Source: a virus (lineage: Duplodnaviria; Heunggongvirae; Uroviricota; Caudoviricetes). Taken from it: a DNA stretch of 7,825 nt. The stretch lies in the IMG/VR virus record IMGVR_UViG_2681813268_000005, one strand, 5' to 3'. The notes below the pieces were generated by a model. That model was not told where the DNA came from, did no database searches, and worked only from the letters and a program-made list of their open reading frames with translations. Positions 122 to 7,825 of the stretch are shown piece after piece. A program made the translations under genes and the position numbers. How positions within the stretch are numbered: the first letter of the stretch is position 1; each line of letters starts with the position of its first letter.

Positions 122-277
122 ATGAAGCAGCAAAAGGCGATGTTAATCGCCCTGATCGTCATCTGTTTAACCGTCATAGTGACGGCACTGGTAACGAGGA
201 AAGACCTCTGCGAGGTACGAATTCGAACCGGCCAGACGGAGGTCGCTGTCTTCACAGCTTACGAACCTGAGGAGTAA
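122..277 (+). CDS. hokD: Hok/Gef family type I toxin (small membrane-depolarising peptide), 51 aa
   Basis: Translation MKQQKAMLIALIVICLTVIVTALVTRKDLCEVRIRTGQTEVAVFTAYEPEE matches the HokD/RelF sequence as I recall it; single TM helix plus conserved C-terminal region; AAGGAG SD 106-111 about 9 nt upstream of ATG 122. The ORF track's in-frame extension from 65 is probably not the real start. Confidence 0.85.
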   Translation: MKQQKAMLIALIVICLTVIVTALVTRKDLCEVRIRTGQTEVAVFTAYEPEE

Positions 278-497: not shown

Positions 498-779
498 ATG
501 AAAATCGAAGAATTACGTGAAATTTTTAGTGAAGATGGCCTCTATACTGTGCGCGTTGAGAATGGCGCTATTGTCAGCCACTGCCTTCCAGACTACACAA
601 TTCTGATAATTCAGCCGTCTTTGCCAGCAGGCACGGGCGGCGCTCTCACGCATTTAAATCTGATTGGTACCAGCATCCCCCATGCACTGAAGAACAGGCC
701 GAATGGCTCATTCAGTGTTACCGCAGGCGCGGATGCGAGGTTAAAAAAGCCCTTAGCCTCGACTACCGTCACTGGATAA
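498..779 (+). CDS. Small hypothetical prophage protein, in the position of rem in Qin-like prophages (hok - rem - ydfU order)
   Basis: ORF with AAGGA SD (485-489) 8 nt before ATG 498 (the track's 495 start is a TTG); N-terminus MKIEELREIFSEDGLYTVRVENGAIVSHCLPDY looks protein-like, the C-terminal third is low complexity. Assignment by synteny only. Confidence 0.4.
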   Translation: MKIEELREIFSEDGLYTVRVENGAIVSHCLPDYTILIIQPSLPAGTGGALTHLNLIGTSIPHALKNRPNGSFSVTAGADARLKKPLASTTVTG

Positions 780-854
780 TCTCCGTCAGGCTCCCTTACT
801 CCGAACGGCCAACGCGTCCGTCCCGCACATTCCAGCAACGGATCTGGAGGTAAT

Positions 855-1913: not shown

Positions 1914-2294
1914 ATGACTGAACGCATAGAATTTGTTTTGCCTTACCCGCCAACGGTGAACACTTACTGGCGTCGTCGTGGCAGCACATATTTTGTATCA
2001 AAAGCCGGGGAGCGTTATCGCCGGGCAGTGGCGCTTATTGTTCGCCAGCAGCGGCTGAAATTAAGCCTGTCCGGAAGGTTGGCAATAAAAATTATTGCAG
2101 AACCACCGGATAAGCGCCGCCGTGACCTGGACAATATTCTGAAAGCGCCGCTGGATGCGCTGACGCATGCGGGGTTGCTAATGGACGATGAGCAGTTTGA
2201 TGAAATCAATATCGTTCGTGCTCAGCCAGTATCTGGTGGACGTCTGGGGGTGAAGATTTACCCCATAATGCTTGAAGGGCAGGTCAAAAAATGA
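1914..2294 (+). CDS. rusA: RusA-family Holliday junction resolvase (crossover junction endodeoxyribonuclease)
   Basis: 126 aa; LPYPPTVNTYWRRRG N-terminus and DKRRRDLDN...DDEQ acidic catalytic motifs characteristic of RusA; typical size; ATG immediately follows the upstream stop. Confidence 0.85.
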   Translation: MTERIEFVLPYPPTVNTYWRRRGSTYFVSKAGERYRRAVALIVRQQRLKLSLSGRLAIKIIAEPPDKRRRDLDNILKAPLDALTHAGLLMDDEQFDEINIVRAQPVSGGRLGVKIYPIMLEGQVKK

Positions 2295-3112
2295 AACTGG
2301 AAGATTTACCGAAATACTACTCCCCAAAATCCCCCGGCCTGACTGATGCATCGGCCTCAACGTCGAAAGATGCGCTGAGTATCACTGATGTGATGGCCGC
2401 GCAGGGCATGACACAGAATCGGGCTGAGATGGGGGTTTCTGCGTTCCTTGGGAAAATGGGCATTAGTATGAATGACAGAGAGCGGGCAACAGAATTGCTG
2501 ACAGAATATGCACTCAGTCGGTGTGATCGCGTGGCGGCGTTAAGAAAACTCCCGGCAGAAATAAAACCGGCAGTGATGCGTATTATGGCTTCGTATGCGT
2601 TTGAAGATTATGCCCGTAGCGCGGCGAGCAAAAAACAGTGCCCCTGCTGTCACGGAAAAAAATTTATTGAAAGCGAGGTTTTTACAAACAAGATCCAGTA
2701 TCCGGATGGTAAGCCGCCGGTATGGGCAAAGTGTACGAAAGGTGTGTATCCGTCTTACTGGGAAGAATGGAAAAAAGTCAGGGAGGTGGTAAAAGTTGCC
2801 TGTCCGGAGTGTGGCGGAAAGGGTGAGGTTTCCACCGCCTGTAAGGATTGCCGTGGGCGTGGTGTCGCCATTCATCGTGAAGAGTCGGTAAAACGTGGTA
2901 TGCCTGTTATCAGAGACTGCCAGCGTTGTGGTGGTCGTGGCTGTGAAAGGCTGCCATCAACGGAGGCATTTAATGCCATATGCAAAGTGACGAGTGCTAT
3001 CACGCTTGATACGTGGAAAAAATCAGTGAAACGCTTTTACGATACGTTGGTGGTTCGGTTTGACATTGAAGAGGCATGGGCGGAGCGGCAGTTAAAGAGG
3101 GTAACGCGATAG
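2291..3112 (+). CDS. Late-gene antitermination protein Q (lambda-Q family, 273 aa, expanded zinc-binding region)
   Basis: N-terminus MKLEDLPKYYSPKSPGLTD...ITDVMAAQGM parallels lambda Q (MRLESVAKFHSPKSPMMSD...GTDVMAAMGM, from memory); one degenerate and three perfect CxxCxGxG motifs; ATGA start/stop overlap with rusA; followed directly by a lambda-like PR'/qut/tR' module. Confidence 0.8.
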   Translation: MKLEDLPKYYSPKSPGLTDASASTSKDALSITDVMAAQGMTQNRAEMGVSAFLGKMGISMNDRERATELLTEYALSRCDRVAALRKLPAEIKPAVMRIMASYAFEDYARSAASKKQCPCCHGKKFIESEVFTNKIQYPDGKPPVWAKCTKGVYPSYWEEWKKVREVVKVACPECGGKGEVSTACKDCRGRGVAIHREESVKRGMPVIRDCQRCGGRGCERLPSTEAFNAICKVTSAITLDTWKKSVKRFYDTLVVRFDIEEAWAERQLKRVTR

Positions 3113-3117
3113 TGTTG

Positions 3118-3168
3118 TTGATTTTTCCCGAATCTGTGGTAAATTTGCTCTAACGATGGGCGTTTTAT
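3118..3168 (+). promoter_or_regulatory. Late promoter PR' with Q-utilisation (qut) region and sigma70-dependent pause element
   Basis: TTGATT (3118-3123), 16-nt spacer, extended -10 TGgTAAATT (3137-3145); AACGAT -10-like pause inducer at 3152-3157; the stretch GGTAAATTTGCTCTAACGATGGG closely resembles lambda PR' GGGTAAATTTGACTCAACGATGGG (from memory). Predicted TSS near 3152. Confidence 0.65.
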
Positions 3169-3194
3169 GCCTGACGTTAGAAGATTTTTTACAC

Positions 3195-3216
3195 CCCGCC
3201 GCCTGGCGGGTTTTTT
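3195..3216 (+). terminator. tR'-like rho-independent terminator of the short PR' leader RNA
   Basis: CCCGCC (3195-3200), loop GCCT, GGCGGG (3205-3210), then TTTTTT (3211-3216); about 60 nt downstream of the predicted TSS. Confidence 0.65.
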
Positions 3217-3338: not shown

Positions 3339-3536
3339 ATGCTAAAACAGCAGGATATGACAGAAACCGCCAGAGTGGTGTTTAATGAATTAAGCGTTAC
3401 CGAACCGGCGACAGTCGGGGAGATAGCGCAGAATACTTACCTTTCACGCGAACGCTGCCAGTTAATACTGACCCAGCTGGTTATGGCGGGTCTGGCAGAC
3501 TATCAGTTCGGTTGTTACAGACGCCTTCCGCAGTGA
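3339..3536 (+). CDS. 65-aa hypothetical protein, possible small winged-helix/HTH DNA-binding protein
   Basis: ATG 3339 preceded by a purine-rich GGAAAAGGGAAAAAGAC; segment ATVGEIAQNTYLSRERCQLILTQLVMAGLADY has helix-turn-helix character; an identical 65-aa ORF recurs at 4576-4773. The track's longer 3252 start is a GTG extension not conserved in copy 2. Confidence 0.55.
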   Translation: MLKQQDMTETARVVFNELSVTEPATVGEIAQNTYLSRERCQLILTQLVMAGLADYQFGCYRRLPQ

Positions 3537-3803: not shown

Positions 3804-4351
3804 AACCGGTAGTGATGCGCATTATGGCTTCGTACGCTTTTGAGGATTATGCCCGCAGCGCAGCGAGTAAAAAGCAGTGCCCTTGTTGCTATGGGGAAAA
3901 ATTTATTGAAAGCGTAGTTTTTACAAACAAGGTCCAGTATCCGGATGGTAAGCCGCCGGTATGGGCAAAGTGTACGAAAGGTGTGTATCCGTCTTACTGG
4001 GAAGAATGGAAAAAAGTCAGGGAGGTGGTAAAAGTTGCCTGTCCGGAGTGTGGCGGAAAGGGTGAGGTTTCCACCGCCTGTAAGGATTGCCGTGGGCGTG
4101 GTGTCGCCATTCATCGTGAAGAGTCGGTAAAACGTGGTATGCCTGTTATCAGAGACTGCCAGCGTTGTGGTGGTCGTGGCTATGAAAGACTACCATCAAC
4201 GGAGGCATTTAATGCTATATGCGAGGTGACAAACCAGATAACACGCGCGTCATGGGAAAAAACAGTTAAGAAATTTTATGATGCGCTGGTGACCCGGTTT
4301 GATATTGAAGAAGCATGGGCTGAGCGGCAGTTAAAAAAGGTAACTAGGTAA
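3793..4351 (+). pseudogene. 3' fragment of a second, divergent Q antiterminator allele (C-terminal ~180 residues, lacks N-terminus)
   Basis: Homologous to 2554-3112 of the full Q gene; central segment (3941-4180 vs 2701-2940) appears nucleotide-identical, flanks diverge (about 17 aa substitutions by eye, including Cys to Tyr in GGRGCERLP to GGRGYERLP). The track ORF 3812-4351 begins at an internal GTG; no native start or RBS. Confidence 0.7.
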
Positions 4352-4356
4352 CAAGG

Positions 4357-4407
4357 TTGATTTTTCCGGAATCTGTGGTAAATTCGTCATAACGATGGGC
4401 GTTTTAT
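4357..4407 (+). promoter_or_regulatory. Second PR'/qut copy (divergent allele)
   Basis: TTGATT (4357-4362), 16-nt spacer, TGgTAAATT (4376-4384), AACGAT pause element 4391-4396; differs from copy 1 at several positions in the initial transcribed region. Confidence 0.6.
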
Positions 4408-4433
4408 GCCTGACGTTAGAAGAGTTTCTACAA

Positions 4434-4455
4434 CCCGCCGCCGAGCGGGTTTTTT
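4434..4455 (+). terminator. Second tR'-like terminator
   Basis: CCCGC (4434-4438), loop CGCCGA, GCGGG (4445-4449), TTTTTT (4450-4455). Confidence 0.6.
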
Positions 4456-4575
4456 ATGACTGAAATCGCGTCAGTACAGTAAACGCGCTGGTGGCGGTGA
4501 ATACCTGTCTTTCAGCTTGCTGGCTTTTTCGACAAGAGTTATTGGTGTGTCACGTTAACCGGAAAAGGAAAAGAC

Positions 4576-4773
4576 ATGCTAAAACAGCAGGATATGACAG
4601 AAACCGCCAGAGTGGTGTTTAATGAATTAAGCGTTACCGAACCGGCGACAGTCGGGGAGATAGCGCAGAATACTTACCTTTCACGCGAACGCTGCCAGTT
4701 AATACTGACCCAGCTGGTTATGGCGGGTCTGGCAGACTATCAGTTCGGTTGTTACAGACGCCTTCCGCAGTGA
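4576..4773 (+). CDS. 65-aa hypothetical protein, second copy (identical protein to 3339-3536)
   Basis: Identical translation; a 2-nt indel just upstream removes the spurious N-terminal extension seen in copy 1, supporting the ATG as the true start. Confidence 0.55.
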   Translation: MLKQQDMTETARVVFNELSVTEPATVGEIAQNTYLSRERCQLILTQLVMAGLADYQFGCYRRLPQ

Positions 4774-4923: not shown

Positions 4924-5982
4924 ATGCTTAATACTGTAAAAATATCCAGTTGTGAGTTAATCAACGCCGACTGCCTGGAATTTATCCGGTCGTTACCCGA
5001 AAATTCTGTTGACCTGATAGTCACGGACCCGCCGTACTTTAAAGTGAAGCCTGAGGGCTGGGATAACCAGTGGAAGGGCGACGATGATTACCTGAAGTGG
5101 CTGGACCAGTGTCTGGCGCAGTTCTGGCGGGTGCTGAAACCTGCCGGAAGTCTTTACCTGTTCTGTGGTCATCGCCTGGCATCTGATATCGAAATCATGA
5201 TGCGTGAACGCTTCAGTGTGCTGAACCATATTATCTGGGCGAAGCCGTCCGGACGCTGGAACGGATGCAACAAGGAAAGCCTGCGGGCGTATTTCCCCGC
5301 CACAGAGCGCATTCTGTTCGCGGAACATTATCAGGGGCCGTATCGTCCGAAAGATGCCGGGTATGCGGCGAAGGGCAGTGCACTGAAACAGCATGTGATG
5401 GCCCCGCTGATTTCTTACTTTCGTGATGCGCGAGCTGCCCTGGGGATAACGGCAAAACAGATTGCAGATGCCACAGGAAAGAAAAACATGGTGTCGCACT
5501 GGTTCAGTGCCGGTCAGTGGCAGTTGCCGAATGAAAGCGATTATCTGAAATTACAGGCGCTGTTTGCCCGGGTGGCAGAAGAGAAGCATCGGCGTGGTGA
5601 ACTGGAAAAGCTCCACCACCAGCTGGTGGATACGTATACCTCACTGAACCGGCAGTATGCGGAGCTGCTGAGTGAATATAAACATCTGCGGCGGTATTTT
5701 GGCGTGACGGTGCAGGTGCCGTATACCGATGTGTGGACGCATAAACCGGTGCAGTTCTATCCCGGGAAACATCCGTGCGAAAAACCGGCAGAAATGCTGC
5801 AGCAGATAATCAGCGCTAGCAGTCGTCCGGGTGACCTGATTGCAGATTTTTTCATGGGGTTGGGTTCGACAGTGAAAGCGGCACTGGCGCTCGGGCGTCG
5901 TGCAATTGGCGTTGAGCTGGAGACTGAACGTTTTGAGCAGACGGTTCGGGAAGTACAGGATTTAGTCAGCCAGAACGGATGA
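4924..5982 (+). CDS. DNA methyltransferase, beta-class N6-adenine/N4-cytosine family (orphan; no restriction endonuclease gene in window)
   Basis: 352 aa; catalytic DPPY motif (VTDPPYF) near the N-terminus and AdoMet-binding FxGxG (DLIADFFMGLGST) near the C-terminus, the beta-class motif order (IV before I); the location between Q and the tRNA cluster is typical of lambdoid and Stx-type prophages. Confidence 0.85.
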   Translation: MLNTVKISSCELINADCLEFIRSLPENSVDLIVTDPPYFKVKPEGWDNQWKGDDDYLKWLDQCLAQFWRVLKPAGSLYLFCGHRLASDIEIMMRERFSVLNHIIWAKPSGRWNGCNKESLRAYFPATERILFAEHYQGPYRPKDAGYAAKGSALKQHVMAPLISYFRDARAALGITAKQIADATGKKNMVSHWFSAGQWQLPNESDYLKLQALFARVAEEKHRRGELEKLHHQLVDTYTSLNRQYAELLSEYKHLRRYFGVTVQVPYTDVWTHKPVQFYPGKHPCEKPAEMLQQIISASSRPGDLIADFFMGLGSTVKAALALGRRAIGVELETERFEQTVREVQDLVSQNG

Positions 5983-5984
5983 TA

Positions 5985-6013
5985 TTGAAGAATTAATTAC
6001 GCGTCGTTATTAT
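5985..6013 (+). promoter_or_regulatory. Candidate sigma70 promoter of the tRNA operon
   Basis: TTGAAG (5985-5990), 17-nt spacer, TATTAT (6008-6013); 9 nt before the first tRNA; overlaps the methyltransferase stop codon. Confidence 0.5.
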
Positions 6014-6022
6014 GCGGCTCCC

Positions 6023-6098
6023 GGCCCTTTAGCTCAGTGGTGAGAGCGAGCGACTCATAATCGCCAGGTCGCTGGTTCAAATCCAGCAAGGGCCACCA
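6023..6098 (+). tRNA. ileZ: tRNA-Ile2 (anticodon CAU, presumably lysidine-modified; reads AUA)
   Basis: Hand-folded cloverleaf: acceptor GGCCCTT/AAGGGCC, D-arm GCTC/GAGC, anticodon loop CTCATAA, T-arm GCTGG-TTCAAAT-CCAGC, encoded CCA; close to E. coli ileX rather than an elongator Met tRNA. Confidence 0.9.
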
Positions 6099-6105
6099 TC
6101 ACATA

Positions 6106-6182
6106 CCGCCATTAGCTCATCAGGAAAGAGCGCCAGCCTTCGAAGCTGGCTGCGCGGGGTTCAAGTCCCCGATGGCGGTCCA
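6106..6182 (+). tRNA. argN: tRNA-Arg (anticodon UCG)
   Basis: Cloverleaf: acceptor CCGCCAT/ATGGCGG, anticodon stem CCAGC/GCTGG, loop CTTCGAA, T-arm CGGGG-TTCAAGT-CCCCG, encoded CCA. Gene name by analogy with the ileZ-argN-argO clusters of lambdoid/Stx phages. Confidence 0.85.
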
Positions 6183-6195
6183 TTATCTGCATCAT

Positions 6196-6272
6196 GCGTT
6201 GTTAGCTCAGCCGGACAGAGCAATTGCCTTCTAAGCAATCGGTCACTGGTTCGAATCCAGTACAACGCGCCA
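6196..6272 (+). tRNA. argO: tRNA-Arg (anticodon UCU; reads rare AGA/AGG)
   Basis: Cloverleaf: acceptor GCGTTGT/ACAACGC, anticodon stem ATTGC/GCAAT, loop CTTCTAA, T-arm ACTGG-TTCGAAT-CCAGT, encoded CCA. Confidence 0.85.
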
Positions 6273-6299
6273 CACTTATTTTCCCTGGCTCGCTTTTGA

Positions 6300-7319
6300 G
6301 AGTTAATCAACGCCGACTGCCTGGAATTTATCCGGTCGTTACCCGAAAATTCTGTTGACCTGATAGTCACGGACCCGCCGTACTTTAAAGTGAAGCCTGA
6401 GGGCTGGGATAACCAGTGGAAGGGCGACGATGATTACCTGAAGTGGCTGGACCAGTGTCTGGCGCAGTTCTGGCGGGTGCTGAAACCTGCCGGAAGTCTT
6501 TACCTGTTCTGTGGTCATCGCCTGGCATCTGATATCGAAATCATGATGCGTGAACGCTTCAGTGTGCTGAACCATATTATCTGGGCGAAGCCGTCCGGAC
6601 GCTGGAACGGATGCAACAAGGAAAGCCTGCGGGCGTATTTCCCCGCCACAGAGCGCATTCTGTTCGCGGAACATTATCAGGGGCCGTATCGTCCGAAAGA
6701 TGCCGGGTATGCGGCGAAGGGCAGTGCACTGAAACAGCATGTGATGGCCCCGCTGATTTCTTACTTTCGTGATGCGCGCGCGGCCCTGGGGATAACGGCA
6801 AAACAGATTGCAGATGCCACAGGAAAGAAAAACATGGTGTCGCACTGGTTCAGTGCCAGTCAGTGGCAGCTACCGAACGAAAGCGATTATCTGAAATTAC
6901 AGTCGCTGTTTGCCCGGGTGGCAGAAGAGAAACATCAGCGCGGTGAACTGGAAAAGCCCCACCACCAGCTGGTGGATACGTATACGTCACTGAACCGGCA
7001 GTATGTGGAGCTGCAGAGTGAATATAAGCATCTGCGGCGGTATTTTGGTGTGACGGCGCAGGTGCCGTACACGGATGTGTGGACACATAAACCGGTGCAG
7101 TTCTATCCCGGGAAACATCCGTGCGAAAAACCGGCAGAAATGCTGCAGCAGATAATCAGCGCAAGCAGTCGTCCGGGAGACCTGGTTGCAGATTTTTTTA
7201 TGGGCTCAGGTTCAACGGTAAAAGCGGCACTGGCGCTCGGGCGTCGTGCGATTGGCGTTGAACTGGAGACCGGACGTTTTGAGCAGACAGTCAGGGAAGT
7301 TCAGGATTTAATCGTTTGA
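6300..7319 (+). pseudogene. Second DNA methyltransferase copy, 5'-truncated (first ~10 codons and start codon missing), divergent 3' half
   Basis: Homology to the full gene begins at 6300 directly after an in-frame TGA (6297-6299); no ATG before the DPPY codons (6372-6383); first canonical start is GTG 6390, downstream of DPPY. The first ~480 nt are nearly identical to the full copy, the remainder diverges (e.g. DLVADFFMGSGST, different C-terminus). Confidence 0.6.
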
Positions 7320-7330
7320 AACGGATGAGA

Positions 7331-7359
7331 TTGCAGAATTAATTACGCACCATTATTAT
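7331..7359 (+). promoter_or_regulatory. Candidate sigma70 promoter of the second tRNA operon copy
   Basis: TTGCAG (7331-7336), 17-nt spacer, TATTAT (7354-7359), 9 nt before the tRNA. Confidence 0.5.
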
Positions 7360-7368
7360 TCTGCTCCC

Positions 7369-7444
7369 GGCCCTTTAGCTCAGTGGTGAGAGCGAGCGAC
7401 TCATAATCGCCAGGTCGCTGGTTCAAATCCAGCAAGGGCCACCA
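7369..7444 (+). tRNA. ileZ: tRNA-Ile2 (anticodon CAU), second copy
   Basis: Appears sequence-identical to 6023-6098. Confidence 0.9.
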
Positions 7445-7451
7445 TCACATA

Positions 7452-7528
7452 CCGCCATTAGCTCATCAGGAAAGAGCGCCAGCCTTCGAAGCTGGTTGCG
7501 CGGGGTTCAAGTCCCCGATGGCGGTCCA
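7452..7528 (+). tRNA. argN: tRNA-Arg (anticodon UCG), second copy
   Basis: Same cloverleaf as 6106-6182, with one substitution in the variable loop (TTGCG vs CTGCG). Confidence 0.85.
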
Positions 7529-7541
7529 TTATCTGCATCAT

Positions 7542-7618
7542 GCGTTGTTAGCTCAGCCGGACAGAGCAATTGCCTTCTAAGCAATCGGTCACTGGTTCGA
7601 ATCCAGTACAACGCGCCA
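7542..7618 (+). tRNA. argO: tRNA-Arg (anticodon UCU), second copy
   Basis: Appears sequence-identical to 6196-6272. Confidence 0.85.
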
Positions 7619-7632
7619 CACTTATTTTCCCT

Positions 7633-7658
7633 GGCTCGCTTTTGTGGGCCTTTTTTTT
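7633..7658 (+). terminator. Rho-independent terminator of the tRNA operon
   Basis: GGCTCGC (7633-7639), loop TTTT, GTGGGCC (7644-7650; 7-bp stem with two G-U pairs), then TTTTTTTT (7651-7658). The matching sequence after the first tRNA cluster is interrupted inside the loop at about 6296. Confidence 0.55.
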
Positions 7659-7825
7659 AAATGTCTCACAATTCAGGCGGTTGACTGTTGTCTGGTTTGC
7701 GGGGAGTTTGTTAAAAGAAACTGGCATGGTGAATCCCCCTGTGCGGAGGGGCAATCAGCGAGTAGGTATATGGGATAATCGCGGATTCAGGTGCTGGTAC
7801 TGAATTCACCGGGAGGCACCCGGCA

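Follow-up and report, generated by a model that had tools for sequence, protein, structure and literature searches.

Does a Q antiterminator that carries four cysteine motifs, where the Q protein of phage lambda carries two, represent an unusual protein with an enlarged metal-binding array, or an ordinary member of its family? The question is raised by an open reading frame (ORF) in a 7,825-nucleotide stretch of viral DNA (Duplodnaviria; Heunggongvirae; Uroviricota; Caudoviricetes; IMG/VR record IMGVR_UViG_2681813268_000005), which is referred to as the window in this study. The ORF occupies positions 2291 to 3112 of the + strand, begins with an ATG codon and codes for a protein of 273 amino acids, called window Q here. 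An earlier note on this DNA had described the product as a lambda-like Q antiterminator with an expanded array of four DnaJ-like CxxCxGxG motifs, which could form two zinc centres, and had proposed that the extra module might alter the engagement of qut or of RNA polymerase (RNAP). The analysis presented below leads to a plainer answer. The gene is very probably an intact late-gene antiterminator Q of a lambdoid Escherichia coli prophage, and belongs to the common long form of the family, that of phi80 gp17 and YdfT.

Results

Relationship of window Q to lambda Q

A search with hidden Markov models placed window Q in the lambda Q family. The protein scored 167 bits with Pfam PF03589 (Antiterm, gathering score 26.7) at E=1e-49, and PHROG 127, "anti-termination protein Q-like", covered its full length. 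Among solved structures, the lambda Q chains were its only real relatives (phmmer, E=2.4e-39). The phmmer alignment was split into two parts, one pairing residues 1-113 of window Q with residues 1-113 of lambda Q, the other pairing residues 182-273 with lambda residues 116-207. Because the alignment splits around them, amino acids 114-181 are an insertion relative to lambda Q.

In lambda Q, residues 1-44 form a torus, or nozzle, in the RNA-exit channel; residues 61-113 and 153-207 make up the body; and residues 114-152 make up the arm, a type I shuffled zinc ribbon in which C118, C121, C144 and C147 hold one zinc ion (Yin et al. 2022, PMC9388147). The statement in the earlier note that lambda Q, with its 207 amino acids, has two CxxC pairs in one zinc-binding region was therefore correct, as the pairs C118xxC121 and C144xxC147 lie in a single ribbon (PMC9388147). 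The nozzle segment, the four-helix body with its helix-turn-helix and the zinc-ribbon arm of lambda Q (PDB 4MO1, 7UBJ-7UBN) all have homologous counterparts in window Q. Over amino acids 1-44, 23 of the 44 residues are identical and G39 is kept, bearing out the lambda-like N-terminus noticed earlier, and identity continues through amino acids 45-113 (24/69), the arm (13/35) and the C-terminal body (21/55). In the AlphaFold2 (AF2) model, confidence (predicted local distance difference test, pLDDT) was low over amino acids 1-44, which is to be expected because this segment is disordered when free. The four-helix body with its helix-turn-helix can be superimposed on that of lambda Q, as membership of the family demands. 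C184, C187, C210 and C213 of window Q align with the four zinc ligands of lambda, and in both proteins the two CxxC pairs are spaced by 26 residues. Judged by these homologies, window Q is a member of the lambda Q family in which every testable defining feature is present, and its activity is assigned by homology. It differs from lambda Q, which has one ribbon, by a 68-amino-acid insert placed between lambda residues 113 and 116 and by two extra cysteine pairs.

Conservation of the cysteine motifs and abundance of the long form

The earlier note had read all four motifs as CxxCxGxG. Four CxxC motifs are indeed present, but only three of them have the strict CxxCxGxG form because motif 1 ends in K instead of G. 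In an alignment of 110 full-length homologues, C171, C174, C184, C187, C210 and C213 are invariant, and so are F131 and K134, which lie in the hairpin that joins motifs 1 and 2; for C117 and C120, conservation reaches at least 90%. With all eight cysteines conserved to this degree, the motifs are conserved features and not products of chance.

Homologues with four motifs and 260-277 amino acids occur throughout the Enterobacterales, in Escherichia, Salmonella, Klebsiella, Enterobacter, Citrobacter, Serratia, Pantoea and others, and two 90%-identity clusters of long homologues alone hold 4648 and 3739 sequences. A near copy of the window gene (at least 80% of the gene covered) is found in 2478 of 5426 complete E. 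coli genomes (46%), with up to 99.8% DNA identity. In phages, the long form was matched in one piece in 131 of the 249 records with a family match, among them HK225, mEp237, ES18 (gp73), SfV, mEp460 and phages converting for Shiga toxin 2c (Stx2c); lambda, P22 gp23 and HK620 gave a two-piece, short-form match. Four cysteine pairs are present in phi80 gp17, in YdfT/QuuQ of the K-12 prophage Qin, in HK225, in ES18 gp73 and in SfV Q. In many family members motif 3 is CxC rather than CxxC, with both cysteines retained. When the 55 scorable representatives of 50%-identity clusters were tallied, 28 had four pairs, 12 had two (several of these being lambda itself or lambda fusions) and 15 had one or three (mostly fragments), a tally that may favour long forms since the search was seeded with the long form; the phage count of 131 in 249 carries the same bias to a smaller degree.

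The lambda protein with its two motifs is thus the shorter, less common form of the family. Window Q is ordinary because the four-motif long form is the common version, and the notion of an expanded, unusual array does not hold: the homology searches place the protein, in substance, in a large and ordinary Q subfamily with the same motif count, which includes phi80 Q and QuuQ/YdfT. It belongs to a sequence family that was known before, and RefSeq annotates it correctly.

The closest architectures are those of phi80 Q and K-12 QuuQ. The phi80 protein (gp17, AFV29194.1, 269 amino acids) has the same architecture with four cysteine pairs and, in the insert, the same hairpin EVFTNK...YP.GKPP.W...REVV.V, and its pR' has an annotated Q site and a terminator nearby. 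It is 39% identical to window Q, and differs in motif 3, which is CxC (CRCHGKG), and in its Q-binding element. Guo and Roberts, in a 2004 paper (J Bacteriol 186:3599; cited in PMC9388147), reportedly compared phi80 Q with lambda Q. YdfT/QuuQ of Qin (b1559, 250 amino acids) is a member of the same family that is 42% identical to window Q and has four CxxC motifs in the same order (CEHCSGTG, CQHCHGKG, CRGCKGKG and CGRCNGNR); it differs in its shorter hairpin between motifs 1 and 2 and in its location within a cryptic prophage.

The inserted module

The insert sits exactly at the lambda body/arm junction and holds motifs 1 and 2. In the AF2 model, in which pLDDT over the insert is 69-87, motif 1 lies just before a strand formed by amino acids 125-136 and motif 2 just after a second strand (159-170); two short helices occupy the hairpin tip, and short strands are formed by amino acids 114-116 and 179-181. 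The arm is modelled with a strand (192-195), a helix (196-202) and another strand (206-209) between motifs 3 and 4. With its two knuckles at the base of a hairpin, the modelled insert is presumed to be a zinc ribbon that repeats the pattern of the lambda-type arm. An hhalign comparison of profiles built from 30 (insert) and 35 (arm) diverse sequences aligned the two in register, motif 1 with motif 3 and motif 2 with motif 4 (94% probability, E=1.3e-7). This result is suggestive and not conclusive, because the short cysteine motifs dominate the score.

Motifs 1 and 2 are missing together in the short-form (lambda-type) proteins. From these alignments we infer that the four motifs bind zinc in pairs, and that the insert most likely arose by tandem duplication of the arm, so that motifs 1+2 and 3+4 would each form a Cys4 ribbon, one after the other. 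The in-register alignment of insert and arm makes tandem ribbons likelier than a nested pair of the DnaJ type; the tandem pairing is also favoured because the short forms lose motifs 1 and 2 jointly and the pair that remains in lambda binds one zinc. The suggestion that four motifs could form two zinc centres is consistent with the AF2 hairpins and with the hhalign result. Within the family, the hairpin between motifs 1 and 2 can be as short as about 6 residues or as long as about 55. Between window Q and phi80 Q it is about 55% identical (counted on the pairwise alignment), against 39% overall.

No structure containing the second zinc module was found among the solved structures in the PDB, and no paper on it was found in the literature on QuuQ/YdfT, phi80 Q and CXXCXGXG antitermination. 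One literature match merely mentions two CXXCXGXG motifs in a Q-like protein of an Acinetobacter phage.

The late promoter and terminator downstream of Q

A PR'-like late promoter begins 6 bp past the Q stop codon. Its -10 is identical to that of lambda, and the sequence AACGATGGG from position 3152 is identical to the lambda pause element plus the flanking GGG, so that the lambda-like character given earlier to PR'/qut is upheld, and the PR'/terminator module does lie at 3118-3216. The gene position is also the same as in lambda. The differences from lambda are in the spacer sequence that holds the Q-binding element, which is not that of the window, and in the distance of the terminator from the start, about 45-65 nucleotides in the window and about 190 in lambda. 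Annotated terminators are found at the same relative place as that of the window in phi80, HK225, ES18 and SfV. Phage HK225, with a Q that shares 61% identity with window Q, has exactly the same spacer as the window, TTTCCCGAATCTGTG, which makes this spacer the likely Q-binding element.

A consensus promoter scan of the window called no promoter-like site, PR' included; by our own count PR' matches at 8 of 12 positions, and the scan misses it because the threshold is 9. The assignment of PR' is kept on its alignment to the lambda and phi80 promoters.

The layout is common to phages with a long Q (window, HK225, SfV, phi80 and ES18) and to lambda with its short Q: a -35, a 16-17 bp spacer, a -10 and a pause element 6-7 nucleotides further on. 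HK225, SfV and lambda have AACGAT as the pause element; phi80 has AACGCT, and ES18 a loosely similar AACAGT. A distinct qut architecture was sought in the long-Q phages HK225, SfV, phi80 and ES18, and none was found. Since long- and short-Q phages share this layout, the extra module comes without a visibly different qut.

Gene context and duplications

The gene order around window Q is a DUF968 protein gene, RusA, Q, a 65-amino-acid ORF (orf65), a DNA methylase gene and three tRNAs (coordinates of features are given in Table 1). This is the usual nin-region end of a lambdoid prophage, and the same order is found in complete E. coli genomes, in which the Q gene bears the label "antitermination protein". 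Upstream of the DUF968 gene lie a Hok/Gef-family toxin gene (hokD-like) and a Rem-family ORF, an arrangement also present in K-12 Qin and related prophages. The orf65 sequence occurs in two identical copies, between the PR' terminator and the methylase; it gave a weak, sub-threshold winged-helix (TrmB) match (E=0.0026) and is called "hypothetical protein" in related genomes. At its far end, the window cuts through a match to the small RNA STnc100 (Rfam RF02076; 91 bits against a gathering score of 47).

Table 1. Coordinates of the features of the window (amino acid numbers are those of window Q)
Feature	Position	Strand	Remarks
Q antiterminator gene	2291..3112	+	273 amino acids; long (phi80/QuuQ-like) subtype of the lambda Q family
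Counterpart of lambda nozzle (torus) segment	2291..2422	+	amino acids 1-44; 23/44 identity, G39
Insert, presumed second zinc ribbon	2630..2833	+	amino acids 114-181 (68); motif 1, long beta-hairpin, motif 2
Motif 1, CPCCHGKK	2639-2662	+	amino acid 117 onward
Motif 2, CPECGGKG	2801-2824	+	amino acid 171 onward
Lambda-type arm zinc ribbon	2834..2944	+	amino acids 182-218; motifs 3+4; aligns to lambda 116-152
Motif 3, CKDCRGRG	2840-2863	+	amino acid 184 onward
Motif 4, CQRCGGRG	2918-2941	+	amino acid 210 onward
PR'-like late promoter with qut	3118..3157	+	aligned with lambda PR' and phi80 pR'
-35, TTGATT	3118-3123	+	
Candidate Q-binding element	3124-3139	+	in 16-bp spacer
-10, TAAATT	3140-3145	+	identical to lambda
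Sigma-dependent pause element, AACGAT	3152-3157	+	six bases after -10
Intrinsic terminator (tR' equivalent)	3195..3216	+	strong; about 45-65 nucleotides past presumed start; scan: six G-C pairs, then T-run
Truncated second Q copy (5'-truncated)	3812..4351	+	179 amino acids (= 95-273); 162/179 identical
PR' of truncated Q copy	4357-4396		
Terminator of truncated Q copy	4432-4457		
Hok/Gef-family toxin gene (hokD-like)	122-277		
Rem-family ORF	498-853		
orf65, two copies	3339-3536 and 4576-4773		65 amino acids
Full methylase gene	4924-5982		
5'-truncated methylase gene	6390-7319		
tRNA triplets Met(CAT)/Arg(TCG)/Arg(TCT)	6023-6272 and 7369-7618		identical
CAT-anticodon tRNA, two copies	6023-6098 and 7369-7444		
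sRNA STnc100 match	7695-7825		cut by window end

The window is an entire draft-assembly contig of 7825 bp (CXEW01000199.1, GCA_001260755.1) and contains two overlapping tandem-like duplications. In the first, a unit of about 1238 bp is present twice between positions 2552 and 5032, with the junction at about 3791. The unit starts within Q, at about codon 88, takes in the rest of that gene, PR', the terminator and orf65, and ends some 109 bp into the methylase gene; its two copies are 94% identical in their Q parts and 100% identical in their orf65 parts. At the junction, where GTCACGGACC meets GGCAGAAATAAAACC, about codon 36 of the methylase gene is joined to about codon 88 of Q with a microhomology of 2-4 nucleotides. 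The junction at about 3791 had no match in the 5426 complete E. coli genomes or in the GTDB representative genomes; a true rearrangement or an artefact of the draft assembly could each account for it. The second duplication has a period of 1346 bp, spans 4950-7641 with its junction at about 6296, and runs from about codon 9 of the methylase gene through the three tRNAs. The tRNA with the CAT anticodon is tRNA-Met according to ARAGORN, and in related prophages RefSeq gives it as tRNA-Ile. The triplet presumably matches the ileZ-argN-argO set upstream of stx in Stx phages.

The second copy of Q lacks the N-terminal 94 residues, the nozzle segment among them, and judging from this it is probably not a functional Q. 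It retains all four cysteine motifs, and 12 of its 17 differences from the full copy fall within amino acids 232-255, in the helix-turn-helix region. Its PR' spacer (TTTCCGGAATCTGTGG) is one base apart from that of the full copy (TTTCCCGAATCTGTGG). By these differences, the truncated copy looks like a different allele of Q and its binding element, derived from another prophage.

Discussion

The evidence for window Q as an intact, common long-form antiterminator has to be weighed against several observations that speak against it. Motifs 2 and 3 resemble the single zinc site of anti-TRAP (E=0.032), which fits a nested topology, and they also resemble the DnaJ cysteine-rich domain in a sub-threshold Pfam match and in a Foldseek match to DnaJA2 (probability 0.97, E=0.34); the hhalign match between insert and arm is driven largely by the short CxxCxGxG motifs; and the gene lies on a short draft contig with odd duplications. 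In anti-TRAP two motifs bind one zinc, and in the cysteine-rich domain of E. coli DnaJ four CxxCxGxG repeats form nested zinc centres, 1+4 and 2+3. The four motifs of window Q could then be a DnaJ-type cysteine-rich domain with the same nested centres, acquired from, or converged on, DnaJ/anti-TRAP-like modules. This would agree with the Pfam DnaJ_CXXCXGXG match at amino acids 171-217 (E=2.8e-6), with the listing of PF00684 in the precomputed Pfam annotation of homologues, with the alignment of anti-TRAP to motifs 2-3, and with the spacing in relatives that have a short insert, where a DnaJ-like distance of 13-14 residues separates motif 1 from motif 2 and motif 2 from motif 3, and one homologue even carries the name "chaperone protein DnaJ". 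However, the Pfam match (score 27.9) is below the gathering threshold of 32.7, the Foldseek match to DnaJA2 has a TM-score of only 0.13-0.24, and motifs 3+4 share both homology and exact spacing with the lambda pair that holds one zinc. The joint lack of motifs 1 and 2 in lambda-type proteins and the register between insert and arm likewise speak against nested centres, which we therefore regard as unlikely. As for a DnaJ origin, capture from DnaJ, or membership of the DnaJ family, was rejected on the sub-threshold match and on the lack of any other part of DnaJ: neither a J domain nor the C-terminal substrate-binding domains had a Pfam match in window Q, the remainder of which is lambda Q body. 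The NCBIfam DnaJ models scored 21.9 against a cut-off of 377. What window Q shares with the DnaJ cysteine-rich domain (PF00684) and with anti-TRAP is the repeated CxxCxGxG zinc-knuckle motif, with weak sequence and fold matches; what separates it from DnaJ, besides the J domain, is a zinc topology that is likely tandem and not nested. The likeness concerns the motif and does not extend to the protein family. The homologue named after DnaJ in its source record is P0031, a Q homologue of 258 amino acids from Serratia quinivorans, and this name looks like a misannotation caused by the CxxCxGxG motifs.

The duplications bear on whether the gene is still active. The contig also carries truncated second copies of Q and of the methylase gene, and the K-12 Qin relative is located in a cryptic prophage; both observations could mean that the gene is no more than a degenerating relic of a defective prophage, its antiterminator action lost. 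Against this, the ORF is full-length, its DNA is 99.8% identical to genes annotated as intact in complete genomes, and its protein shares 96% identity with the Q of a phage converting for Stx2a and 91% with the Q of isolated phages. All conserved residues are retained, and the promoter, the pause element and the terminator are intact. Decay is thus very improbable, and the full-length copy is best read as an intact long-form Q.

Lambda Q binds its Q-binding element through the helix-turn-helix and the arm and captures RNAP at a sigma70-dependent pause just past the start; together with NusA, its nozzle then narrows the RNA-exit channel so that terminator hairpins cannot form (PMC9388147). By homology, we infer that window Q should work in the same way. 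The helix-turn-helix of the body and the zinc-ribbon arm would bind the Q-binding element between the -35 and the -10 (3118-3145), and the protein would engage RNAP held by sigma70 at AACGAT (3152-3157). With NusA, the N-terminal 44 or so residues would fold into a nozzle within the RNA-exit channel, and RNAP thus modified would pass the terminator at 3195-3216 into the late region, with orf65, the DNA methylase, the tRNAs and the lysis genes.

It may be asked whether the extra zinc module makes a long-form Q engage qut DNA or RNAP differently from lambda Q, possibly through an additional contact with the zinc-binding domain of beta' or with the DNA beside the Q-binding element. Lambda Q contacts the zinc-binding domain of RNAP beta' through residues 110-112, 117 and 122-126, and positions 11-13 of its binding element through residues close to the zinc ligands (PMC9388147). 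The insertion, between lambda residues 113 and 116, adjoins these RNAP- and DNA-touching residues, and on this analogy a role of the module in contacting RNAP or DNA is reasonable, if tentative. The invariant F131 and K134, and a conservation of the hairpin between window Q and phi80 Q above the average of the protein, point in the same direction. At the same time, the qut layout is the same for long Q (window, HK225, SfV and phi80) and for short Q (lambda), and the variation in hairpin length within the family disfavours one fixed contact. A different mode of engagement is a possibility to be taken seriously, but it is less likely than not.

As a discovery, window Q carries little weight, since it is an everyday prophage antiterminator, annotated correctly and found in close to half of the complete E. 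coli genomes. Its meaning lies rather in the family. Lambda Q, the textbook and structural model, is the short form, and the common form has, where body and arm meet, a further zinc ribbon that is probably a duplicate, beside the positions that touch the RNAP zinc-binding domain and DNA in lambda. Relatives of window Q lie upstream of stx in some Stx2-converting phages, and for this reason the way in which the long form is loaded has some relevance to the control of toxin expression. If the extra module does take part in such contacts, the form that prevails in the lambda Q family would be loaded onto RNAP in a manner unseen in the lambda structures.

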